Assembly (NCBI GenBank): GCA_964540835.1 | Contig: CAZIOA010000001.1 | Coordinates: 1-42,951 of the forward strand | Direction of reading: 5' to 3' | Source of the DNA: an uncultured Candidatus Saccharibacteria bacterium | GTDB lineage: Bacteria > Patescibacteriota > Saccharimonadia > Saccharimonadales > Saccharimonadaceae | Length of the DNA stretch: 42,951 nucleotides | Shown: positions 3,351 through 31,804 of the stretch, in pieces | Layout of the letters: each line of letters begins with the position of its first letter | Numbering within the stretch: position 1 is the first letter of the stretch | Made by a program: the position numbers and the translations under genes | Notes under the pieces: model-generated | The model's database searches: none | What the model was told of the DNA's origin: nothing | What the model saw: the letters and a program-made list of their open reading frames with translations, nothing else

Positions 3351-3368
3351 CGGCTGTGGAAAACTCCT

Positions 3369-5885
3369 TTAGTTAAATAGGTCGAAACCGACAGCAGGCG
3401 CAGATGGAGCGCTCACGGCAGGTGCCGATGGTTTCGGCACTGGAATATCAAACTTCGGGAGGGACGGTGCAGGTAGTGAATGTGCCGGACTTGGGGTGAA
3501 TTGCTTGACTATAGAAGGGAGTTTGAACGATGGAAATGCTGGCGCGGGTGCTGGCGGTGGCGCGGGTGCTGGCGGCAGCTCTACGACTGGCGGCTTTGGC
3601 GGTGGAGCGACGCGCACAGGAGCAGGCGCTGGCGCGGGTGGTATATATACCGGCTTGGGCGTTTCTAAGCGAGGCGGCTTCGGAGTATCTGCAACGACAG
3701 GCTTTGGCTGCTGTACCGGTTTAGGTGACGGAACTTCATAGGCTGGCGCATCGATGACACGTGGCGGAGTTGGGTCCGGGATCGAATGCACGGGCGGAGG
3801 AGTGATGGCAATCCTATGCTCCACGATGTCGTTGAGCGACTGGCGAGCAGGCTCCGCAGGGGATTTAGGAGCATCCACAGGGGGAGGTGTTTCTACTCGT
3901 ACATGCGTCGGAACGCTATTTGGCTGATCGTCAAGGATATCACTCGCCAGCTGGCCTAGCGATGCCAGTGAGTGTTGAGTAGTTTGTTGTGCCGGGTGAG
4001 GAGCAGTTTGTCGCGAGGCATTGGCAGACGCTAACTCTTGAGCAGTCATGGCGGCATATTGGATGAACTGATCGGCAATCATATTGAGCTCACGACCGAA
4101 GTCCATGCCAGTGTACTGTTTGATCTGGTCTCTCGCCGTGTTGACAACGAAGTTCTTGCCGTCACCAAGTGCGTTTTCGATGACGTGATCGACTTCGCCC
4201 ATGAGTTTGTTGATTTCGCCCATAACAGTGCTAAATGCACGTTGAGCGGCATTAAACTTCGTCAATGGGTCGACATTTGGATCATTGATAATCGCAGCGG
4301 CTTCACCGACAGCGCCTGCCATATGGTTAAAGCCATTCCAGCTATCATCCATCAGCTGCTTCCACGGCTCGGGCATATTCGCTACCAATGTCTGGAAGAA
4401 ATTGCCGGTACCAAACTGCGCGTCAAGTGCCTTGGCTCCATAATGTAGCGCTTCACGAACATTTGCTTCCGGTGGCGGTGCGTTCGGATCGTCATTGCGC
4501 GGAAAGAGGGCACGGAGCGCTCGATTAGCACTCTCGGTGTCCATGATCCTGATACCAGCCCTTTCAAGCGCATCAACGACCCATTCGTTTTCGCGGTGAG
4601 CAACCCAGTGCTCGATGCCGTTCGCATCCTTAAACATCGTCCATGTCACGCTCGGATCATTGCGATCAGGCACCTCATGAGTGCCGTGAGGAATACCGGC
4701 GATGCTATACATGAGGGAAGTAAAGCTTTCGTTGCCACCACTGGCATATGGGTCACGATCATTGTAGAACATGCGTATCTTCGCGCCAGGAGGAAATGCT
4801 TGCTCACCACCCGTGTCGCGGAGACCGATTAACCCCGTGCCGAGTTTGCCCCAAGGACTCTTATCTATACCCTCGGCTCCTTGCGGCCCACCGATCATAT
4901 CGATCGTCAGGTCGCCTGGCCACTTGTTGCCATTTTGCCGATATACGTCCCAGGCAAAATCCTGCCCGGCATACGTACCGAATGAATAATAGATGAAGTG
5001 CGCGTGTTCGCCGCGCGACTGGGATTCCTGGTATCTTGCCATGGAGACTGCCGAGCCCTCTTCAATCGACGTTTCTGGTGATCTAAAGGGGTTACCGATA
5101 CCCATATCGGCAGACCAAGTCATACCTTCGTCACGATTACCAGGAGCGTAACCTTTGGCGTCAAACTCCGGCATAGGAGCCATGACCTGGGTATTGCCAC
5201 CCATACCGTAAGACCTGGTCGTCACCACTGCGTGCTCTATCGTGCCCACTGAAGACGCGTATGAGACGGCAGCATTTTTCGCTTCGCGATCTGGCTTGTC
5301 GGCATGTACGCCACCAAAGAGTACTACGCCAAGCGCCGTGCCACCAGCAAGCACGGTCGCCATGGCTTTTGGCGCTGCGTCAGACGCCAACTCCTGTAAA
5401 CGAGCGGCGGAGCGACTAAGCGCCTTTTTCGTCCTCGTCGACAGTGGATCTTCATCGTTGATTTTAGTCTTTTCGCGTCTCTCCATGCGCGCCTGCAGCA
5501 CAAGTGTTCGCTCCTCTATAGTGTGCTCGCGATGATTCTGCCATTTATTTTGTGCAAAAGTGTAGGCATTTTCGGCCGCCACCACGAGGTTGCCACGAAC
5601 CTGTACGGCTTTTTCTCGAACATGTGTCAGCGATTCAGCGACACCCGCCGCGACCGCGTGCCGATAGTCGACCGGCTCATCCGAGTTTTTATCGAAGTCA
5701 AATAAATTTTCTTCGACCTCCTCACCGCGAAGGTATTTATAGATAGATTCGAGAAACAAGTCACTACCGAGGTCATCCAGCCCCTCTTCCGAAGCGAGAT
5801 ATTGCTCCATTTCTCGATCATGAGTAGCCAAGGCATCTAACGATACTTCAACCTCTGTCTCAGTTGTTACTAAACCTCGACTCAT
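3369..5885 (-). CDS. Membrane-anchored paralog of the poly-proline-tailed hydrolase family (possibly degenerate nucleophile)
   Basis: 838-aa ORF. Charged N-terminal region of about 170 aa, one TM (AMATVLAGGTALGVVLFGGV), core with YYSFGT elbow-like motif and LDAQFGTGNFF block homologous to 1432..3216, and a Pro-rich tail of about 200 aa (PAPAPAPV, PPAPAPPPAPAPAF). Confidence 0.8.
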   Translation of the reverse strand: MSRGLVTTETEVEVSLDALATHDREMEQYLASEEGLDDLGSDLFLESIYKYLRGEEVEENLFDFDKNSDEPVDYRHAVAAGVAESLTHVREKAVQVRGNLVVAAENAYTFAQNKWQNHREHTIEERTLVLQARMERREKTKINDEDPLSTRTKKALSRSAARLQELASDAAPKAMATVLAGGTALGVVLFGGVHADKPDREAKNAAVSYASSVGTIEHAVVTTRSYGMGGNTQVMAPMPEFDAKGYAPGNRDEGMTWSADMGIGNPFRSPETSIEEGSAVSMARYQESQSRGEHAHFIYYSFGTYAGQDFAWDVYRQNGNKWPGDLTIDMIGGPQGAEGIDKSPWGKLGTGLIGLRDTGGEQAFPPGAKIRMFYNDRDPYASGGNESFTSLMYSIAGIPHGTHEVPDRNDPSVTWTMFKDANGIEHWVAHRENEWVVDALERAGIRIMDTESANRALRALFPRNDDPNAPPPEANVREALHYGAKALDAQFGTGNFFQTLVANMPEPWKQLMDDSWNGFNHMAGAVGEAAAIINDPNVDPLTKFNAAQRAFSTVMGEINKLMGEVDHVIENALGDGKNFVVNTARDQIKQYTGMDFGRELNMIADQFIQYAAMTAQELASANASRQTAPHPAQQTTQHSLASLGQLASDILDDQPNSVPTHVRVETPPPVDAPKSPAEPARQSLNDIVEHRIAITPPPVHSIPDPTPPRVIDAPAYEVPSPKPVQQPKPVVADTPKPPRLETPKPVYIPPAPAPAPVRVAPPPKPPVVELPPAPAPPPAPAPAFPSFKLPSIVKQFTPSPAHSLPAPSLPKFDIPVPKPSAPAVSAPSAPAVGFDLFN

Positions 5886-9354: not shown

Positions 9355-12300
9355 ATGGATTTTGAGACACGCCTGAACAAGCTGAACGAAGATCAGCGTG
9401 ATGCGGTCGATACTATCGACGGACCGGTGCTGGTGATCGCCGGACCGGGAACCGGCAAAACCGAGCTGCTCAGCATGCGCGTCGCGAACATACTACGGCA
9501 AACCGACACGCTGCCCGAAAACATCCTCTGTCTGACATTTACCGAAAGTGGCGCAGCTAACATGCGCGACCGTCTGACGCGATTTATCGGACAGGCGGCC
9601 CATGACGTCAACATCGGTACGTACCACGCATTCGGCGGTGATCTGATCAAGCGATTTCCGATGTATTTCATGGAGTCACGACTCCAGAGCCCTGTCGATG
9701 ATCTCGGTCAACACCAAATACTCGAAGCCATTATTGACAAGATGAGCTACTCAAACCCGCTCAAACAGACACGCCACCATCTGGGTGACCTGAAAAGTAC
9801 GCTCAGCGAGATCAAGCGTGCGCTGCTATCGAGCGACGACCTCCGCCAGATCGCTACTGAAAATACAACCTTCATCCAGGAAGGTAACCGGGATGTCGCC
9901 GCGATATTCGTTAACTTCACGACTATGCCACGTAAGCTTGAAAAAGCACTGCCTTATTTCGAAAACACGCTTACCGCTATCGAGAAGCACGTCTCTGATA
10001 GTACGCATGAACACATTGTGCCCCTCGCGAACATTGCCCACAAAGAACTTCGTGCCGCGCTAGAAGAAGCGCAGGAAAAAACCACGCCGCTCACGACATG
10101 GAAAAACAAATGGCTCGCAAAAGATGCTGGCAATAAATTTATCCTGGCTGGCGAGCTGGAAAACAGACGAATCAACGCACTGGCCGACGTCCTCGATCAG
10201 TACCAAAAAGCGCTGGAATCGCGTGGACTCTATGACTTTGACGATATGATTATCCGATCCATCCAGGCACTTGAGCGGCATGATGATTTGAAATTCACAC
10301 TACAGGAACAGTACCAGTACTTACTCCTTGATGAGTTCCAGGATACCAACGCCGCGCAACTACGTCTCGTGCAGCTTCTCACGGACAATCCTGTCCACGA
10401 AGGTCGCCCAAATGTCATGGCAGTTGGTGATGACGACCAGGCTATCTATGCCTTTCAGGGCGCCCAGTATTCGAACATGTTGGACTTTCACAGGGCGTAT
10501 CGTGACGTTCATGTCGTCAACCTCAGCCGGAACTACCGTTCGCACGCTGACATCCTGTTAAGCGCGCGCAATGTCGCCGAGCAAATCGCCGAACGTCTGC
10601 ATCATAAGTTTGATGACATGACGAAGACACTCGTCGCATCCAACCCTAATCTGCCCGAAAAAGCCACCATCTCTCGCAACGAATTTCTCAGCGGCATCGC
10701 GCAGTACGATTGGATCGCGCACCAAATCAAGCGGCTTATCGACGACGGGGTAGAGCCGCGCGAAATCGCCGTCCTGGCACCCAAGCATCGACAGCTTGAA
10801 CCACTCGTGCCATATCTCAATGCGCTCGATATACCAGTACGTTACGAAAAACGCGAGAATATCCTGGAAGCGCCAGTCGTCACGCAGCTGCTCGCCATGA
10901 GCCGTCTCGTGCTTGCTATCAAGAGCGGACAGAACGCCCTGGCAAACTCATTGTGGCCTGAGGTACTGAGTTATGATTTTTGGAATATACCGACGCATAT
11001 CATCTGGCAGCTTGCGTGGAAGGTGAGTGATTCCGATGACGACAGCTACAACTGGAACAAAGCAGTACTGGACGAAGACGTCTGTCGCGAGCCAGCGCTG
11101 CTTTTCCTGTCACTCGCCGGGATGAGCGAAGGTGAATCACTGGAGACTATGCTTGACTACCTGATCGGCACATCTCCTGTGGACACGCATGAGGAGTCTC
11201 TACCGTCCATTCGTTCACCGCTCCGCGAACACTACACCGGTCAACAGGCACAAGCAAATAATCCGCAACTATTCTATGAAACACTATCTCATCTGAAGAT
11301 ACTGCGCGAAAAACTGCGTGACTATCAGCAAACGCATGATCGTGCCCTGACGCTCGCGGACCTGATCACGTTCATCGATATGTATCATGCGGCCGAGCAG
11401 CAGATGATCAACACCAGTCCATACAACCAGGACGCCAATGCCGTGCAGATCATGACGGTGTTCAAAGCGAAAGGACTGGAGTACGAGCATGTCTTCCTGC
11501 CAAGCTGCACAGATGAAGTATGGGGCGGCTCATCACGTGGTAATTCCAACAAGCTGACACTGCCGCCAAACCTTGCGCCGATCCGCCACGCTGGCGCGAC
11601 TGACGATGAGCGATTACGCATCTTGTTCGTAGCGCTGACACGCGCCAAATTCGGCCTCTATATGACCAGCTACACGCAGAATTACAATGGCAAAGCGACG
11701 AAGCGACTGAAATACCTGGACGAGCAAGACCAAGGCGACGATACGTTCCGTAGCATGATATTACCATCCGAATCGCAACTGGTACTTGTCGACGATCGCT
11801 CGACTCCGCCTATAGAGAGTCTGGAGCTCGACTGGCGAGTGCGACACTCCGACGGCATCGCCGTCGCGAATCTCCGCGCGCTACTCGAGGATAGGCTACA
11901 GAAATACAAGCTCAGCCCGACGCACCTGAACTCGTTTACCGATGTCATGTACGGCGGACCGGTGAGTTTCTACTACAACACGATACTCCGTTTCCCTCAG
12001 GCTCCGACGCTTGCGAGCCAGTACGGCAACGCCATGCACGAAACCATGGAGTGGATCCAATACCGCGTCGATGAGTCCGGGACGGTACCGACACTCGACC
12101 AGACTGTCGCTGAATTCACCGAGCGGATGAAGGCCAAGAAGCTGCCGGAGCAGCAAGAAACACTGGAGGTCGAAAGGGGAGTGGTAGCGCTATCTGCGTA
12201 TCTGTCACAGCGTTCGCACATATTCAAGCCTGGCGACAAAGCAGAGCACAACTTTGCTCGCGAAGGCGTGGTTATCGATGACGTATATATGAGCGGTAAA

Positions 12301-12693
12301 ATCGACCGCATGGAAATCGACAAAGAGAAGAAAGAAATCGTTGTCGTCGACTATAAGACCGGCAAAGCCTTTGACCGCTGGAAATCCGATGCCAAGCTAC
12401 ATAAGTACCGCCAACAACTCTACTGCTACAAGCTGCTTATCGAGAGCTCACACACGTTCGTAGGCTACAAAGTCGTCGAGGGGCGTCTCGAGTTCCTGGA
12501 GCCAGACGAGACGAACAATATTCACTCATTGTCACTGGCGTTCGACGACGAAGAGCTAGAGAAGAACACACGACTCATGAAACTCGTCTGGCAGCACATC
12601 CATGACCTGTCATTCCCAGACACTTCCGACTATGACGAGTCGCTTACAGGCATCAAACGATTCGAGCAAGATTTGCTCGATGGTAAAATATAA
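9355..12693 (+). CDS. UvrD/PcrA-type SF1 DNA helicase fused to a C-terminal PD-(D/E)xK (RecB/AddB-like) nuclease
   Basis: Walker A GPGTGKT and motif II DEFQDT. C-terminal DRMEI...VVVDYKTGK...YRQQLYCY nuclease signature. 1112 aa. Confidence 0.85.
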   Translation: MDFETRLNKLNEDQRDAVDTIDGPVLVIAGPGTGKTELLSMRVANILRQTDTLPENILCLTFTESGAANMRDRLTRFIGQAAHDVNIGTYHAFGGDLIKRFPMYFMESRLQSPVDDLGQHQILEAIIDKMSYSNPLKQTRHHLGDLKSTLSEIKRALLSSDDLRQIATENTTFIQEGNRDVAAIFVNFTTMPRKLEKALPYFENTLTAIEKHVSDSTHEHIVPLANIAHKELRAALEEAQEKTTPLTTWKNKWLAKDAGNKFILAGELENRRINALADVLDQYQKALESRGLYDFDDMIIRSIQALERHDDLKFTLQEQYQYLLLDEFQDTNAAQLRLVQLLTDNPVHEGRPNVMAVGDDDQAIYAFQGAQYSNMLDFHRAYRDVHVVNLSRNYRSHADILLSARNVAEQIAERLHHKFDDMTKTLVASNPNLPEKATISRNEFLSGIAQYDWIAHQIKRLIDDGVEPREIAVLAPKHRQLEPLVPYLNALDIPVRYEKRENILEAPVVTQLLAMSRLVLAIKSGQNALANSLWPEVLSYDFWNIPTHIIWQLAWKVSDSDDDSYNWNKAVLDEDVCREPALLFLSLAGMSEGESLETMLDYLIGTSPVDTHEESLPSIRSPLREHYTGQQAQANNPQLFYETLSHLKILREKLRDYQQTHDRALTLADLITFIDMYHAAEQQMINTSPYNQDANAVQIMTVFKAKGLEYEHVFLPSCTDEVWGGSSRGNSNKLTLPPNLAPIRHAGATDDERLRILFVALTRAKFGLYMTSYTQNYNGKATKRLKYLDEQDQGDDTFRSMILPSESQLVLVDDRSTPPIESLELDWRVRHSDGIAVANLRALLEDRLQKYKLSPTHLNSFTDVMYGGPVSFYYNTILRFPQAPTLASQYGNAMHETMEWIQYRVDESGTVPTLDQTVAEFTERMKAKKLPEQQETLEVERGVVALSAYLSQRSHIFKPGDKAEHNFAREGVVIDDVYMSGKIDRMEIDKEKKEIVVVDYKTGKAFDRWKSDAKLHKYRQQLYCYKLLIESSHTFVGYKVVEGRLEFLEPDETNNIHSLSLAFDDEELEKNTRLMKLVWQHIHDLSFPDTSDYDESLTGIKRFEQDLLDGKI

Positions 12694-14532: not shown

Positions 14533-15492
14533 TTAGATAGGTAGGTTGATAAAGCTAGTCAGGCTACCCAGCAGACCCGACGCATTGCCAGCCATACCGT
14601 TTGCTATGCCGATCTGCGACGTGATTGCGGAGAATGAACCCATCAACCCACTCAAGCCCCCCAGACCGCCGAGCATACCGCTCAGATCGCTGATATTTCC
14701 AAGGTTGCCCAGATTGCCCAAGCTACCAAGACCGCCCAGACCGCCCATCATGCCGCTAAATGTCGCGACGAGCGCCATGACCAGCGTGATCGATGAAGCA
14801 AGTATAGACCCGATGGTAGTCATCATGGTAGAGATATTGTCAAGCTGAGACTGTGCGGAGGTGACGACTCCTTCGCCGTTAAGATTCAAGTCCACGCAAG
14901 TGCTTTTGTCCGTGTTGCCAGACAAGCACTTCCTGATTTTTGCTATTTGGCTCTGTAGCCCTCCGGCAGTTTTCTTGAGCTTGTCAAATACGCCAGACAA
15001 GCTCTCTATCGCTTTGGTTACGGCCGCTTGTACGTCCGTCAGTTGCGTGATCTGGAACTGCGCGTCGATATTCTTGGCAAGCGACTTCAAGTCACCCAGT
15101 GACATGGTGTTCGTGACTTTTTCCTGCATGGCTTTGAGCTGCTCAATGACTTTTTCGATGAACTTTTTGACTTTGTCTTTGAACTCGCTCGGCAATGTGT
15201 CTTTGTTTTTTGTGGTGTCTTTGTCGTTCAGGCCCTTTACCTGAAACGTTGTGCCGTTGCTGCTGATATGGATGTCTATGCTCAGGCTTTTTCTTGTTTT
15301 TTCGAAGTTTTCCAGACGGCGATCAATTTCTTTGAGCACCTTCTGCTTGAGCTCTTTGACTGCCTGCGTTTCGGCAGCGGCTTGTGCGTTTACCGTGGCT
15401 ACTGGCACCGATACAGCCAACAACATACTCATAAATAGCAGTGCGCATGCAGATACGGCCCTTGATGTGAAACGGGGGAGAGTGATATTCAT
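14533..15492 (-). CDS. Secreted coiled-coil protein with Gly/Leu-repeat hydrophobic C-terminus (hypothetical)
   Basis: Signal peptide MNITLPRFTSRAVSACALLFMSMLLAVSVPVATVNAQA, long K/E-rich helical region, and a C-terminal GGLGGLGSLGNLGNLGN...GGLGGLSGLMG tract. Confidence 0.65.
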   Translation of the reverse strand: MNITLPRFTSRAVSACALLFMSMLLAVSVPVATVNAQAAAETQAVKELKQKVLKEIDRRLENFEKTRKSLSIDIHISSNGTTFQVKGLNDKDTTKNKDTLPSEFKDKVKKFIEKVIEQLKAMQEKVTNTMSLGDLKSLAKNIDAQFQITQLTDVQAAVTKAIESLSGVFDKLKKTAGGLQSQIAKIRKCLSGNTDKSTCVDLNLNGEGVVTSAQSQLDNISTMMTTIGSILASSITLVMALVATFSGMMGGLGGLGSLGNLGNLGNISDLSGMLGGLGGLSGLMGSFSAITSQIGIANGMAGNASGLLGSLTSFINLPI

Positions 15493-15493
15493 C

Positions 15494-15793
15494 CTAGTCT
15501 CCTAACTTTACTCTGTTTTTACTATCGTCAAGCGCTGCCTCGGCCGCTTCTTGGGCGTCTTTTGACTGCTCGATGCTCGCCTCGAGCGTCGCGAGATTTT
15601 GCTTCGCTTCGTCAGCCGAAGTGACCGACGCTTCCGAAGTGTTTGCCTGTCCCGTACTGTTCGCGCTACCTTCTTCTGGCGCCGCAGAGCCAAATACGAT
15701 ATAGAGCGCAAGCGCGATGACGATAAATACAGCAGTGACAGTGCCGACGATGAGCCACGCAAATCGTCGAGAAGATTGTTCTGTTTTGTCCAT
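15494..15793 (-). CDS. Small single-pass membrane protein (hypothetical, 99 aa)
   Basis: TM WLIVGTVTAVFIVIALALYIVFG followed by an acidic tail. The stop lies 1 nt from the start of 14533..15492 (same operon). Confidence 0.55.
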   Translation of the reverse strand: MDKTEQSSRRFAWLIVGTVTAVFIVIALALYIVFGSAAPEEGSANSTGQANTSEASVTSADEAKQNLATLEASIEQSKDAQEAAEAALDDSKNRVKLGD

Positions 15794-17491: not shown

Positions 17492-18972
<1,481 letters not shown>

Positions 18973-19022
18973 TTATGTGCTCTAGTCCTTCTTGCTCAGC
19001 GTTTCGGTCGCTAAAGTCTCGC

Positions 19023-19409
19023 TCATGTCGTCGCCTCCTCGCCGCCGCTGATTTGAAAGTTGCCAGCCAGTACATCCGATAGTTTCCGCCGTGGCTTGAT
19101 TTTGGGCTTGATACCACGCTTGCGGTTATAGTCCTCCTTCGCCCAGCCATAGAGGTTACGGACATCTTCACCATTCAGTCCGGTCTCGTATTCAACCTGT
19201 AGGATTTTAAGTATCCTTGCCGGACTATAATCCTGGTCGATAAACTCCTGACGACGTTGCTCGTATATAGCAAAGAGGTTCACGTCGTCCCTCTGCTCAA
19301 AGTCTGCCTGAAGCTCCCTGAGGTACTTAGGTAGCTTCTTGATATAACCAAAGTCCTGCTCCTTTTTGACGGGAAAACGAGTTAACTCCGGTTGCTTCTC
19401 GGTCATCAT
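19023..19409 (-). CDS. Unknown 128-aa hydrophilic protein embedded between atpG and atpD
   Basis: The start ATG overlaps the atpG stop (ATGA). Highly charged, no TM. The last 10 codons copy the atpG 3' end (ISGGEEATT vs ISGGVEAMK). Confidence 0.6.
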   Translation of the reverse strand: MMTEKQPELTRFPVKKEQDFGYIKKLPKYLRELQADFEQRDDVNLFAIYEQRRQEFIDQDYSPARILKILQVEYETGLNGEDVRNLYGWAKEDYNRKRGIKPKIKPRRKLSDVLAGNFQISGGEEATT

Positions 19410-20275
19410 TTCATCGCCTCCACGCCGCCGCTGATTTCGGCGAGTTCCTGTGTGATCGCGCTCTGGCGGGCTTTGTTCATGGCGAGCGTCAGGTCATCGA
19501 TCAGGTCGCTGGCGTTGTCGGTCGCGTTTTTCATGGCGAGCATACGCATGATGTACTCGCTGGCACGGGCTGTAAGCAACGCGTGGTACACTTGCGCCTC
19601 GACGAGACGATACGTCACAGCAGCCAGCACTTCCTCGGCACTTGGCTCAAATGTCGCTTGGCGGACAGCTTCGCTCACCTCGGTTTTTTCAAACCCGGCT
19701 GGCAATATACGCTGCACCGTCGCCTCTTGCTTGACGGTCGAAACAAATTCGGTAAACACGATATCGACAGCATCGACGTCGCCGTTCTCAAACGACTCTA
19801 CCGCAGCGTCGACAATCGCGCGCAGCTGGTTACCGGCTGGATCGTCGGGCAGATCCTGGTATGCGGCAGTAACCTGTGTGTCTTTGAGCCTTGAAACGAA
19901 ACGGTTAGCACGACGACCGACGGCTATGGTTTGGTTTTTTATGCCAGCCGCATCGTCGTCGAGCAACTGTCGGGCGTAGAGTTTGAGTACGTTGGCATCG
20001 TATGCACCAGCAAGACCTTTGTCAGTCGCAATGACGATGAGCATGCGGCTTTTGATCTTGTCGCGCCTTTGAAACAGCGGATGTCGATCAGTTTCGCCCT
20101 GCGCAGCAAGGTGGGTCAGGATCTCACGTGCAGCGGTCGTGTATGGACCTGATGCTTTTTCGGCTTCCTGAGCCTTGCGCATCTTGCTAGCTGCCACAAG
20201 TTGCATGGCCTTGGTAATCTGCTTGGTCGATTTGACCGAGCGGATACGGGTTTTGAGCGCGCGGGTACTAGGCAT
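19406..20275 (-). CDS. atpG: F1 ATP synthase gamma subunit
   Basis: MPSTRALKTRIRSVKSTKQITKAMQLVAASKMRKAQ N-terminus and ITQELAEISGG C-terminus are typical of gamma. Confidence 0.95.
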   Translation of the reverse strand: MPSTRALKTRIRSVKSTKQITKAMQLVAASKMRKAQEAEKASGPYTTAAREILTHLAAQGETDRHPLFQRRDKIKSRMLIVIATDKGLAGAYDANVLKLYARQLLDDDAAGIKNQTIAVGRRANRFVSRLKDTQVTAAYQDLPDDPAGNQLRAIVDAAVESFENGDVDAVDIVFTEFVSTVKQEATVQRILPAGFEKTEVSEAVRQATFEPSAEEVLAAVTYRLVEAQVYHALLTARASEYIMRMLAMKNATDNASDLIDDLTLAMNKARQSAITQELAEISGGVEAMK

Positions 20276-28239: not shown

Positions 28240-29865
28240 ATGGGTAATCATGAAACCGAAAAATATGACGATTTTGAGACGATAGAGGGTGAGTCGGTCA
28301 TCGTTTGTATTGACGGCGTATCCAAGATCGAAGAGATGTTCGGTTCCGAATCGCTCTCAGCCCCGACAAATCTAGAAATTGAAAAAGACGTCAACTGGCC
28401 TCGACCGACAAAAAGCATGTCAGTCGAGCTGCTGCCGCTCGAAACAGATATCGACGGGGCGACCCTCGCTACGCGATCAATCAGTACAACGCTAACGTTT
28501 CCAAAATTCAAAGAGATTCCAGATGACGCGCTTGTATCATTCATAACGAATCGCCTCCACGAGGAAACGGGGATACACACGGATTTTTACCCGACGATTC
28601 ATGATGGCGACCACATGGAACACTGGATTTGCGCGCATGATGAATACGCCCTCGTATTTCAAATGCGGAGCAAGGAAAATGAACTATCGCTCCGCGCGTA
28701 TTCTGAGTATGACGATGTACCGGACAAAGATCAGATCAATAGACGTAAGTTGCAGCTGTTCTACATAGCTTCCACGCTCGCGCTCGACGCGTTGGCCAGC
28801 CAACTACCAAATCAAGAAATGAACACACAACGAACTCTCATACGCATTTCTCCTCCTGAAATTAATGAGGAGGGGTTAGAGCAAGAGACAGATGAAACCA
28901 ACGAGCCGGAGGACGCACCTGGAAAGGAATTGGAATTGTGGGTCGGTGAGGAAGAAGCGCCTATAAGGGAGCTGCTTGGACGACCATTTGATACCATCGG
29001 TGGACTGACGCTCGCCAAAGAAAAGTTACTCGAAATAGGTCTCGCATGGACATATCCCGAACTCGCCAAAGAATACGACATACAGCCTTCGCACTTCGTC
29101 CTCCATGGCCCTCCCGGTACGGGCAAAACCTCGCTCATAACGGCCTTCGCCGAAGAATTCGACGCAGAGCTTGTCGCAAAGCCTTCAACCACAATCGTGA
29201 ACGCTTATCTCGGTAAATCAGCCACGAATCTGGCCGACGCATTCAAAGAAGCAACTGACAAGGCAGAAAAGCAAAGAGTCCTATTGTTTTTTGACGAAAT
29301 CGATTCGTTAATAGGAAATAACAGCAAGCAACACCGCGAATACGGCCAGGTAGTAAATACGTTCAAACAGGAACTCGATAATCTAGCCAAATCGCCACAC
29401 TGCAGGAACGTCATCGTAGCGGCAGCGACAAATGCCGATATACAAGACCTCGAACCTGCGATCGTACGCTCTGGCAGGATCGAACCGATTCCCGCGCCAG
29501 CGCCAAACGAAAAAGAGCGCATAGATATCTGGTCGCGACTTATCTACACGTCCGAAGATATCAAAAGAGAAATCGATGCGGTGCAAAACGACAAAGATGA
29601 CGACGAAGAGCTGGTTGCCGCCAGCAAACTGAACCCGTCTCGCTTCGACAAAGATATCGATATCGGCAAACTTGCCAAATTGACCGAAGGAAAAACCGGA
29701 GCCGACTTCGTACAGATTTTGAAACGGATCCGCGTCAAAAAGTTTCGTCAAGCAGTCGGGCTCATAGCTTCGGGCAGACAAATAGAGCATGACGAAAATC
29801 CCCACGTCAAACTCATCACGCAAGTCGATATCGAAGATGCTATACGAACGTTTGGCGTGACTTAG
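28240..29865 (+). CDS. Classical-clade AAA+ ATPase with a unique N-terminal domain of about 270 aa
   Basis: Walker A HGPPGTGKT, Walker B LLFFDEIDS, second region of homology ATNADIQDLEPAIVRSGRIE. Single AAA module. Confidence 0.85.
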   Translation: MGNHETEKYDDFETIEGESVIVCIDGVSKIEEMFGSESLSAPTNLEIEKDVNWPRPTKSMSVELLPLETDIDGATLATRSISTTLTFPKFKEIPDDALVSFITNRLHEETGIHTDFYPTIHDGDHMEHWICAHDEYALVFQMRSKENELSLRAYSEYDDVPDKDQINRRKLQLFYIASTLALDALASQLPNQEMNTQRTLIRISPPEINEEGLEQETDETNEPEDAPGKELELWVGEEEAPIRELLGRPFDTIGGLTLAKEKLLEIGLAWTYPELAKEYDIQPSHFVLHGPPGTGKTSLITAFAEEFDAELVAKPSTTIVNAYLGKSATNLADAFKEATDKAEKQRVLLFFDEIDSLIGNNSKQHREYGQVVNTFKQELDNLAKSPHCRNVIVAAATNADIQDLEPAIVRSGRIEPIPAPAPNEKERIDIWSRLIYTSEDIKREIDAVQNDKDDDEELVAASKLNPSRFDKDIDIGKLAKLTEGKTGADFVQILKRIRVKKFRQAVGLIASGRQIEHDENPHVKLITQVDIEDAIRTFGVT

Positions 29866-29968
29866 CACACCCTGACCGCCACTGAGACTTGCCAATACAA
29901 CAACTAGACTATATTGCTATAATATGATATAGTTATACCAGTCCCATTCATATACGAAGGGAGGGACG

Positions 29969-30190
29969 ATGACAGAAGCTGGTATACATCTGATGGCAAG
30001 TCTATTTGGAGCATTCATCGGAACTCTTGCCATAATCATGCTCGTGATCATGGTGGTAACGGTCATGGTGAAAGTGGTAGCAAGAGTCGCCACGATGATG
30101 GGATTCGATCAGCTTGAGTTCAGGATGAACTACTGCGTGCCTGAGGGCATCAAGGAAGCGGAGAAGTACGCAAACTCTCCCGCATCCTGA
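29969..30190 (+). CDS. Small membrane protein (73 aa) between the AAA+ and Pup-ligase-family genes
   Basis: Strong RBS GAAGGGAGGG 4 nt upstream. Hydrophobic residues 8-45, polar C-terminal tail. Confidence 0.6.
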   Translation: MTEAGIHLMASLFGAFIGTLAIIMLVIMVVTVMVKVVARVATMMGFDQLEFRMNYCVPEGIKEAEKYANSPAS

Positions 30191-30208
30191 CCGCTACATC
30201 TACCAACG

Positions 30209-30295
30209 CCCCCGTCTGCACCTCGCACCAATTCACGACGTTGCACAATCCAGTTGGGATTGTCGTACTCGGAATTGGTGCAGGTAGCGCGGGGG
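30209..30295 (+). other. Extended RNA hairpin / possible terminator or attenuator
   Basis: GCACCAATTC (30225-34) pairs with GAATTGGTGC (30272-81). Inside it are ACGAC/GTCGT and CAATCC/GGATTG pairs, and outside it CCCCCG/CGGGGG, followed by TCTCTCTTTTTGG. CTGCACC (30216-22) can alternatively pair with GGTGCAG (30277-83). Confidence 0.5.
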
Positions 30296-30376
30296 TCTCT
30301 CTTTTTGGCTCTTTCTCTCAGTGGTAACAAATAGGCTATTTTATATTTGCGCCTATACGCGTATAATGTGCCCTCA

Positions 30377-31804
30377 ATGAAGGGACTTGGGAGAAATACA
30401 ATCGATGATTTCCGGTATGGCGTACCGGAGCGTGCGTTTGGCAGCGAAGTCGAATACACGCACCGGAGGGAAATCGTGCAACCGTTTAAAGATCGCTACC
30501 TTGACGCACCCGAATCCCAGCTGATTTTTTATGTTTCGCCTGAATACGCGGTTGCGCCAGGCAGGAATCATCATGACAGTGTGATCACGAGGAACGGCGG
30601 CGAACTGTATCTTGACTTGACATCACTGGAATTCGCGACACCGGAATGCCGGACACCAAGCGAGCTGGTAACGCATGAACGGGCTGGTGAAGTGATCGTC
30701 GCAGATGTCGTCGACCGACTATCGAATCACTTCGGCACGAAAGAAAAAGTTTTCAAACGAACCGGTTATGTGGACACCGTGGTGGCCGACAAGCGATTCA
30801 GTCAAGACAGTATTGGATATCACGAAAGCTATACAAGCATGAACGAATTCACGACACACTCGGCGTCGACAGCATATGGCAAGGAAACAAAAAAGCTCAA
30901 GGAGGCGCAGTGCTTATGTGATTTTCTCGCGCTTCGAAAACTAATCGACGGCGCGGGAATGGTAGCAAATAATCATTTTTCACTAAGCCAAAAAAGTCGC
31001 GCGATCAACTTCAATTACTACCGAAAAGAAGGCGTGAGAGGTGGCACGAAAGAACCTTTTTACATAAAATCAAGCCGTCTGGAAGTGAGGGCTGGCGAAA
31101 ACAGCAAATCCGACTGGGCAACCGAGTTTACGTTCGGGGTGACATCGCTCGTGCTACGCCTGCTCGAACATCAGCGGTATCCCGAACATTTAATGCTTCG
31201 AGACGCAAACGATGCAGCGCGACGAGTTGCCAGAACTCCCAATGCGGCAGTCGCACTGCAGTCCGGAATAACCATGCGTGCAATCGACGTCCTGAAAGAA
31301 ATCGTCGAAGAAGCATACGCGCTCGCAAGCGCATACCCGGATATGCCCGAGTATGAAGAAAAGGCGTTTCAGGACTTCCAAAAATTCTATGCCGACATGC
31401 ACCGGATCAGCTTACGTGATCACGATGTCAAGGCCCTTGCAGATCGAATCAACTGGGCGGCGAGGTTCGACTTTTTGGTCAAGGCTGGGGCGACTTACGA
31501 TACGTTTACCGCATCAGATCTCAATCAGATCAGCCACGATCTAGTGTGGGATCGAATCGGCGAAAAAGACATCGCCCGACGCAGACTGAGCAAGTTGGGG
31601 TTGACTGCACTGACAGCTGACGTGCTAGGGCCACCGCAAACCCGCGCAGCCACGAGGATTAAGATAGCTGGCAATCTATATAAAGAAGATAACCTGCGAT
31701 CCGTCGAATGGTTCAAGGTGACGCCAAAGACTGGTGAACCCCGACTACTGGGCGGTCCACTAAATACTCAAGCCACATGGCCAGACGGCAGCCTCGTCGA
31801 TTAG
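30377..31804 (+). CDS. Pup-ligase/deamidase family protein (PafA/Dop-like carboxylate-amine ligase)
   Basis: FGSEVEY, NGGELYLDLTSLEFATPECRTPSELVTHERAGE, GYHESY, LIDGAG, LSQKSRA, RLEVRAGENS and PPQTRAATR are collinear with remembered PafA/Dop blocks. ATG at 30377 lies 9 nt after TATAAT (ORF-track TTG at 30347). Confidence 0.8.
   Translation: MKGLGRNTIDDFRYGVPERAFGSEVEYTHRREIVQPFKDRYLDAPESQLIFYVSPEYAVAPGRNHHDSVITRNGGELYLDLTSLEFATPECRTPSELVTHERAGEVIVADVVDRLSNHFGTKEKVFKRTGYVDTVVADKRFSQDSIGYHESYTSMNEFTTHSASTAYGKETKKLKEAQCLCDFLALRKLIDGAGMVANNHFSLSQKSRAINFNYYRKEGVRGGTKEPFYIKSSRLEVRAGENSKSDWATEFTFGVTSLVLRLLEHQRYPEHLMLRDANDAARRVARTPNAAVALQSGITMRAIDVLKEIVEEAYALASAYPDMPEYEEKAFQDFQKFYADMHRISLRDHDVKALADRINWAARFDFLVKAGATYDTFTASDLNQISHDLVWDRIGEKDIARRRLSKLGLTALTADVLGPPQTRAATRIKIAGNLYKEDNLRSVEWFKVTPKTGEPRLLGGPLNTQATWPDGSLVD

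Follow-up and report, generated by a model that had tools for sequence, protein, structure and literature searches.

A chimeric near copy of the atpG 3′ end closes an orphan gene inside the ATP synthase operon of a Saccharibacterium

In bacterial atp operons, neighbouring genes are translationally coupled by overlapping stop and start codons (ATGA), with the Shine–Dalgarno (SD) sequence placed inside the upstream gene. A variation on this arrangement is found on a 42,951-nucleotide stretch of DNA from an uncultured Candidatus Saccharibacteria bacterium (contig CAZIOA010000001.1; 'the window' denotes this entire stretch), where ORF128, an orphan gene, is located between atpG and atpD, encoding the gamma and beta subunits of the F1 part of ATP synthase, and ends on a near-identical copy of the last 32 nt of atpG. 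As in other atp operons, an ATG overlaps the stop codon in each copy and is preceded at 7 nt by GGAGG, an arrangement that links atpG, ORF128 and a short relic ORF; in contrast to them, the motif is duplicated together with 15 extra identical nt that have no coupling role, and atpD is not coupled through it. The copy at the end of ORF128 is a composite of a recent 15–21 nt patch derived from atpG and an older similarity of the SD-ATGA junctions.

Several described processes leave repeats that can be compared with this one. Templated mutation, in which nearby imperfect direct repeats undergo short-tract ectopic gene conversion or template switching, is known as misalignment mutagenesis. The window locus has in common with it a short patch from a donor of the same orientation a few hundred nt away, by which the repeat was made longer and more perfect, the anchoring on a pre-existing short similarity and the microhomology at the borders; it differs in that the event is read from comparative sequence only, that it entailed a change in length (21 nt for about 12–18) and that the left border of the patch shows a microhomology of 2 nt only. 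Target-site duplication is resembled insofar as direct repeats bracket ORF128, the left copy being the intact atpG end and the right copy closing the insert, and as 'empty' relatives exist. The repeat is, however, longer than typical target-site duplications, the ORF family was at the site before the repeat, and the right copy is chimeric, ending in the family's own 9 nt. A transposon or insertion sequence was rejected as the source, with neither a transposase nor an integrase found (ORF128 lacks a Pfam, PHROG, NCBIfam or fold match), with none of the inverted-repeat pairs reported in 16.5–25 kb bracketing ORF128, and with copy 2 being not wholly target-derived, its last 9 nt equalling the end of the ORF family in the relatives L015 and L087. 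An integron was rejected as well.

Homology-facilitated illegitimate recombination, a process of naturally transformable bacteria, usually deletes or replaces recipient DNA and does not duplicate it. A long atpG anchor plus one microhomology joint could place foreign DNA beside a conserved gene in a similar manner, and the Saccharibacteria operons considered here do show mosaic recombination tracts, but the 3′ end of the ORF family retained in copy 2 would be left unexplained. The template and variable repeats of diversity-generating retroelements likewise present a near-identical repeat at the 3′ end of a gene; the repeat in the window, on the other hand, comprises 32 nt only and its mismatches (T/A, T/C and A/C) are not adenine-specific. 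This candidate was also discarded, as no reverse transcriptase was seen among the 10 large window ORFs scanned, which are a part of all ORFs.

On the minus strand, atpG ends on AAATCAGCGGCGGCGTGGAGGCGATGAAATGA (copy 1, 19437–19406), which is conserved in all relatives and encodes the native C-terminus ..EISGGVEAMK*, while ORF128 ends on AAATCAGCGGCGGCGAGGAGGCGACGACATGA (copy 2, 19054–19023). The two differ only at 19039, 19030 and 19027 and so agree at 29 of 32 positions; they share their reading frame, and the stop codon forms the end of each. The sequence thus bears out the initial annotation, which had described this match, the protein ends ..ISGGVEAMK* of AtpG and ..ISGGEEATT* of ORF128 and the position of both stops within GGAGGCGAnGAnATGA. 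In a repeat search over 8.5 kb, this pair comes first among the direct repeats, a degenerate search with the 32-mer returns only the two copy sites (0 expected in 100 shuffles), and when the last 32 nt of 114 window ORF ends are compared with the sequence downstream, the best match amounts to 14–21 nt, versus 29 for atpG and ORF128. Upstream of the SD, 15 consecutive nt are identical in both copies, synonymous sites included. Independent Logan contigs from several studies display the same repeat structure and metatranscriptome contigs span it; the repeat is not an assembly artefact. A strain variant (L082) carries GGAGGTGA, a fourth mismatch that reduces the identity to 28/32 as compared with 29/32 in the window. 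The concern raised at the outset that the motif may be generic holds for its GG/EE plus ATGA part, which is SD-encoded and found at unrelated genes too, but not for the identity over 15–21 nt.

The chimeric build of copy 2 becomes apparent upon comparison with the ORF ends of relatives. The 3′ end of ORF128 is composed of a left flank GGCAACTTTCAA, a middle part ATCAGCGGCGGCGAGGAGGCG and the end ACGACATGA, followed downstream by GCGAGAC.., and the corresponding parts of the window atpG are CTCGCCGAA, ATCAGCGGCGGCGTGGAGGCG and ATGAAATGA, followed by TGACCG... In L015, ORF144 reads AAGATTTATCAA, TTCGCAAAGGAA and again ACGACATGA, with CAGATAGC.. downstream, and in L087, ORF117 reads ..CCGA, CAGGAGGAA and GCGACATGA, with CGAATTTAG.. 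downstream. The last 9 nt of ORF128 (19023–19031, encoding ..TT* and including the ATGA overlap) consequently match the end of L015 ORF144 at 9/9 and that of L087 ORF117 at 8/9 positions; this 9-mer is a rare one, found 13 times in 1.27 Mb, and the L015 and L087 ORF ends have the subsequent tail in common with the window as well. Being common to these ORF ends, ACGACATGA is old ORF sequence and not derived from atpG, and of the three mismatches that separate the copies, two represent ancestral ORF states because the last 9 nt belong to the ORF family. On the other side, the left flank T.TCAA is also common to the family (TTTCAA in the window, TATCAA in L015 ORF144).

Between these flanks, both of which are common to the window and L015, lie 21 nt (19032–19052) that match atpG at 20 of 21 positions, in frame, and encode ISGGEEA. 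At this position orthologues have TTCGCAAAGGAA (L015), CAGGAGGAA (L087) or GTTTTTCGCGTTGATAGCGAGGAGG (the L085 clade), and it is only this stretch that has no counterpart in the family. The patch carries the allele of the window atpG at the variable synonymous sites GGC GGC, and copy 2 is closer to the atpG end of the window (29) than to orthologous atpG ends (25–27).

ORF128 (19409–19023, minus strand) encodes a protein of 128 aa without a match in Pfam, PHROG, NCBIfam, PDB or Foldseek, for which an AF2 model predicts a helical core (residues 44–102, pLDDT 85–92) and a disordered tail (residues 116–128). The family is tiny, with 7 homologues among 5.8 billion clusters; an exhaustive HMM search of 1.84 billion representatives retrieved two real clusters (P0002 and P0008) and one spurious repeat protein, and a scan of metagenome contigs for more loci yielded 0. 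Every member sits at the atpG/atpD junction, and the family is confined to a narrow Saccharibacteria clade. The junction reads atpG-ORF133-ORF82-ORF51-atpD in L001, L085 and L086, atpG-ORF198-ORF132-atpD on the P0002 contig (JGI 3300071358) and atpG-ORF117-short tail-atpD in L087, while ORF144 of L015 and ORF179 of L005, located at the same site, are probable remote homologues as judged by hhalign (P=0.007 and P=0.003, respectively). None of these loci (L001, L085, L086, L087, the P0002 contig, L015 and L005) has the repeat. Stop-anchored, the gene ends of L001, L085 and L086 are identical to atpG at 5–17 of 32 positions, versus 29 in the window, and the C-termini of other family members read ..GNIQVFRVDSEEDPNDFES, ..NLEEEGEE and ..RQEEAT.

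The patch is thus restricted to the window lineage, where it is present in all strains within about 99%, and the unpatched orthologues are distant ones (about 50–72% aa identity). The GC3 of ORF128 (0.60) is operon-like, which argues against a recent foreign arrival. The ORF128 family was resident at the atpG/atpD junction before the repeat arose and is long-standing there, not a newcomer. The possibility that ORF128 was duplicated in tandem, leaving a remnant of the second copy, was considered and found no support. As the family is always placed between gamma and beta, it could represent a lineage-specific accessory or regulatory protein of F1.

These observations suggest, with somewhat better than even probability, that the repeat stems from a recent lineage-specific templated patch, introduced by a template switch or short ectopic conversion and seeded by the SD-ATGA likeness of neighbouring gene ends. 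In such a scenario, the orphan family would long have resided between atpG and atpD when, in the window lineage alone, a stretch of approximately 21 nt, and no fewer than 15, was copied from the 3′ end of atpG onto the ORF128 3′ end 383 nt downstream, taking the place of 4–6 poorly conserved codons of the disordered C-terminal tail. Copying would have occurred between adjacent gene ends, either through a switch of template during replication or through short ectopic conversion, and the two ends were already alike because each possesses an SD (GGAGG) and an ATGA stop/start overlap. With acceptor flanks that are orthologous and borders that show microhomology only (AA on the left, A.GA.ATGA on the right), these two processes offer the simplest reading. 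Copying presumably ran from atpG to ORF128, since ..EISGG(V/A)EA.. is universally conserved in AtpG, and the C-terminal tail of ORF128 can bear replacement because it is disordered and variable across the family, with the patch being presumably near-neutral.

The initial annotation had taken the repeat for the footprint of the arrival of ORF128, inserted just upstream of the atpG stop with duplication of the coupling junction. ORF128 is indeed an extra gene in a tight junction (the gap between atpG and atpD is 0–15 nt in many Saccharibacteria) and its 3′ end is partly a genuine atpG copy, but the repeat probably does not mark the insertion, as homologues without the repeat occupy the same junction and the last 9 nt belong to the ORF family. 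Worked out as a mechanism, this model has ORF128 entering recently, e.g. by transformation from a related Saccharibacterium, through a crossover between homologous atpG sequences and a single illegitimate joint between CAA and ATC inside the recipient atpG end, upon which the last 32 nt of the recipient atpG were duplicated and closed the insert, the three mismatches representing drift or donor and recipient alleles. We consider it unlikely because ACGACATGA would have to be recreated by chance: T>C and A>C must have restored an end that matches the family at 9/9 (L015) and 8/9 (L087) positions, and all three mismatches depart from the strictly conserved AtpG C-terminus towards ORF-family states. 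The native-like GC3 of ORF128 also argues against it, as does the raised similarity between the window and L004, which starts elsewhere than at the junction.

Other observations speak for such a recent insertion and weigh against the templated patch. L088, the nearest AtpG relative (88%), lacks ORF128 and has the order atpG-ORF57-atpD, and L004, the nearest atpD relative, also lacks it, with atpG followed by a 60-nt tail that starts with CGAGAC (GCGAGAC follows copy 2 in the window) and then atpD; with atpG abutting a small ORF or a tail, both could be empty sites. A contig of run X1, from a relative about 85–90% similar, skips ORF128 as well. The distribution of ORF128 is patchy, the operon has undergone fine-scale mosaic recombination, and one illegitimate joint suffices for an insertion, whereas the patch requires two joints, mechanistically a less simple course than one illegitimate crossover. 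No sampled sister lineage has ORF128 without the patch, a neighbour-joining bootstrap analysis of AtpG does not place the window lineage firmly, and the homology of L015 ORF144, inferred from a weak profile score and synteny, would have to hold. Finally, the same architecture with a convincing empty site exists in L091 as compared with L003, and the clean junction duplications of L091 and L003 indicate that insertion-type events, or patches that reach the stop, occur in this operon.

Two further explanations can be weighed on the same evidence. An ancient junction duplication at the founding of the ORF128 family, followed by concerted evolution, would have its right part diverged to ACGACATGA in the window, L015 and L087 and its left part re-homogenised from copy 1 in the window and lost elsewhere. 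All ends of the ORF family do retain SD and ATGA as well as a GCGA-type spacer that recalls the atpG end, junction duplications are recurrent in the operon, and the recent conversion needed for the templated patch is required here just the same; nevertheless, the ends in L087 and L015 resemble atpG only to the residual level (about 11/18) that SD and ATGA constraints lead one to expect, the left part is seen in the window lineage alone, and the gain of a fourth mismatch by strain L082 runs counter to continuing homogenisation. This origin appears quite improbable. Chance or functional convergence of two SD-ATGA coupling junctions could appeal to GGAGG...ATGA being a generic coupling motif and to SD-encoded GG/EE C-termini at unrelated inserted genes, e.g. 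KGGIDE in Nanosynbacter, but is incompatible with the 15 consecutive identical nt upstream of the SD, synonymous sites included, with the absence of expected matches in shuffles and with the empirical null of 14–21/32. Like an assembly artefact, which is contradicted by the agreement of independent assemblies from several studies, it is effectively refuted.

Besides the proposed templated patch, the operon bears signs of exchange on a fine scale. Sliding windows along it reveal mosaic similarity tracts, none of which starts at the junction, and atpD places L004 closest to the window, which atpA, atpG and atpC do not. Window positions 19487–19546 are identical to L004 at 59 of 60 nt (atpG −141 to −81 from the stop), with an identity of about 75% over the gene, and comparable tracts of high identity are located inside atpA and atpD. 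Such tracts point to fine-scale recombination between species.

With respect to the coupling of the genes, GGAGGCGAnGAnATGA, present at both copies, places an SD (GGAGG) 7 nt before an ATG that overlaps the upstream stop. Copy 1, which contains the SD GGAGG and the ATGA overlap that opens ORF128, would couple the translation of ORF128 to that of atpG. At copy 2, a strong SD (AGGAGG) lies 7 nt before the ATG of an ORF of only 14 codons (MSETLATETLSKKD, 19026–18982, minus strand), which starts on the ATGA of copy 2, and atpD begins with an ATG at 18927, 95 nt past the ORF128 stop; both features had been recognized before and are confirmed. The 14-codon ORF probably represents what is left of the start of a small gene that has since decayed. 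Relatives have intact small ORFs or similar short tails at this site, and the small-gene families ORF51 and ORF57/ORF70 are intact just upstream of atpD in relatives. Within 18928–19026 (minus strand), the 14-codon ORF and the frame that follows resemble a frameshifted relic of the ORF51 or ORF57/ORF70 families. Shuffling shows no significant DNA homology of the 95-nt tail (18928–19022) to ORF51, ORF57, ORF70, the L004 tail, the L087 tail or the ORF128 5′ end; hints of homology are given at the protein level and by short motifs only.

In insert-free relatives, the junction reads stop-..AAGGAGAA..-ATG, i.e. atpD uses its own SD and not an ATGA overlap, and this SD is still present within the 95-nt tail of the window (AGGAGAA, 18938–18932). 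As atpD retains its own SD, its expression needed no junction duplication. A promoter or terminator on the operon strand was not found at the atpG/atpD junction.

The insertion of genes between F1 genes is not restricted to the window. Upon location of atpA, atpG and atpD by tblastn in 80 relatives (80 GTDB species loci), the distance between atpA and atpG is at least 100 nt in 21 of 79 loci and that between atpG and atpD at least 90 nt in 35 of 76, and three further metagenomic contigs with close AtpG relatives have inserts at both F1 junctions. Both junctions are hot spots for orphan genes across Saccharibacteria. Their contents are mostly unrelated lineage-specific orphans, which usually start on the ATGA of the atpG stop, and many of the inserted ORFs end with a GG/EE motif. 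At the atpG/atpD junction of Nanosynbacter-type and other loci (L068/L076, L050 and relatives, L033/L077), a NUDIX hydrolase, a nucleoside 2-deoxyribosyltransferase-like protein or a 23S-rRNA-IVS four-helix-bundle protein is encoded, and sister species of these carriers have no insert there. The KGG(I/N)DE ends of Nanosynbacter were dismissed as atpG copies, being read-through of the atpD SD (TAAAGGAGG). As these GG/EE ends derive from such read-through, the SD-ATGA part of the motif is generic.

True copies of the end of the upstream core gene are rare but recurrent. The ORF that comes first after atpG in L091, ORF200, closes on 16 nt that reproduce the end of atpG exactly (GGAGGCAATGAAATGA; sites 3354–3370 and 3954–3969), and is followed by a homologue of ORF70 of L003; as ORF70 directly abuts atpG in L003 (4367 onward), the two loci form a convincing pair of filled and empty site. 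At the atpA/atpG junction, the end of the orphan ORF90 of L003 matches the atpA end (..VAKGFEE*) at 22 of 24 positions (2221–2244 and 2497–2520) and the end of L015 ORF197 does so at 18 of 24 (2287–2310 and 2884–2907); because ORF90 and ORF197 are unrelated, these copies arose independently. Among 113 gap ORFs, stop-anchored matches extend over 21 nt in L003 and 13 nt in L091, and over at most 6 nt otherwise, with a null maximum of 8.

The splicing mechanism initially proposed for ORF128 probably does not apply to ORF128 itself, but fits L091 and L003. Four independent cases (window atpG/ORF128, L091 atpG/ORF200, L003 atpA/ORF90 and L015 atpA/ORF197), on a background of unrelated inserts at the atpA/atpG or atpG/atpD junction in about a quarter to half of species, back the idea that duplication of the 3′ end with its SD-stop/start junction is a recurrent route by which orphan genes are spliced into, or stabilised within, the F1 part of Saccharibacteria atp operons, an idea we hold to be doubtful for the time being. 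The duplicated junction could then act as a short right-hand homology arm for cassettes that hop between genomes via homologous recombination. A literature search found nothing on inserts in Saccharibacteria atp operons.

The host is a TM7 bacterium (Saccharibacteria), as the top AtpG matches (85–88%) are Saccharibacteria/Saccharimonadia metagenome-assembled genomes, and metagenomes from soil, compost, rumen and sludge contain near-identical sequence. A complete F-type ATP synthase operon in the canonical order atpIBEFHAGDC is encoded on the minus strand of the window, based on the ORF list and on Pfam for gamma and AtpI; the same order, with Pfam families, is found in the relative L001. An atpI-like gene (24644–24366) is followed by atpB (24366–23512), atpE (23334–23116), atpF (23095–22553), atpH (22553–22164) and atpA for the F1 alpha subunit (22154–20619). 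The 289-aa gamma subunit is encoded by atpG (20275–19406; PF00231, E=1e-85; 85–88% identity to Saccharibacteria AtpG), and downstream of ORF128 the operon is completed by atpD (18927–17491; 93–96% aa identity to relatives) and atpC (17491–17066). A second orphan insert, ORF115 (20615–20268), is located at the atpA/atpG junction and shares 8 nt with the start of atpG. With a GC3 of 0.45, it departs from the operon (0.60–0.65); Pfam, PHROG and NCBIfam gave no match, and no homologue was found in any retrieved locus, including L001 and the insert-free relatives. A copy of the atpA end on the ORF115 end was looked for and rejected, as there is no DNA similarity and the protein score of 15 lies inside the null (maximum 16).

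Elsewhere in the window, in which Rfam gave 0 matches, an AAA ATPase (541 aa) and a Pup-ligase family protein (485 aa) are encoded on the plus strand at 28240–31804 with approximately 480 nt between them, a pair that suggests a pupylation-type system in this Saccharibacterium. At 14533–15492 (minus strand), a protein of 319 aa, for which Pfam gives no match, carries GGLGGLGSLGNLGN-type repeats in a run at its C-terminus, has a signal-like N-terminus and is adjoined by a small protein of 99 aa (15494–15793). An AddA-like protein of 1112 aa, a UvrD-type helicase fused to a PD-(D/E)XK nuclease, is encoded at 9355–12693 (plus strand) and may be relevant to the recombination capacity of the organism.

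The repeat at the end of ORF128 is a small product of known mutational processes, a new example of them and probably neutral, and is for this reason not to be read as a record of the entry of the gene. The junction copies and the F1 hot spots constitute a by-product more notable than the repeat itself. An essential and tightly coupled operon of episymbionts with reduced genomes, including the cultivable oral Nanosynbacter, tolerates and repeatedly gains orphan genes at two junctions, and in several lineages the first inserted gene closes with a copy of the end of the upstream core gene. If this reflects a true mechanism, it would offer a concrete and testable way for genes to be gained within coupled operons, as well as a marker for the order of insertion events.

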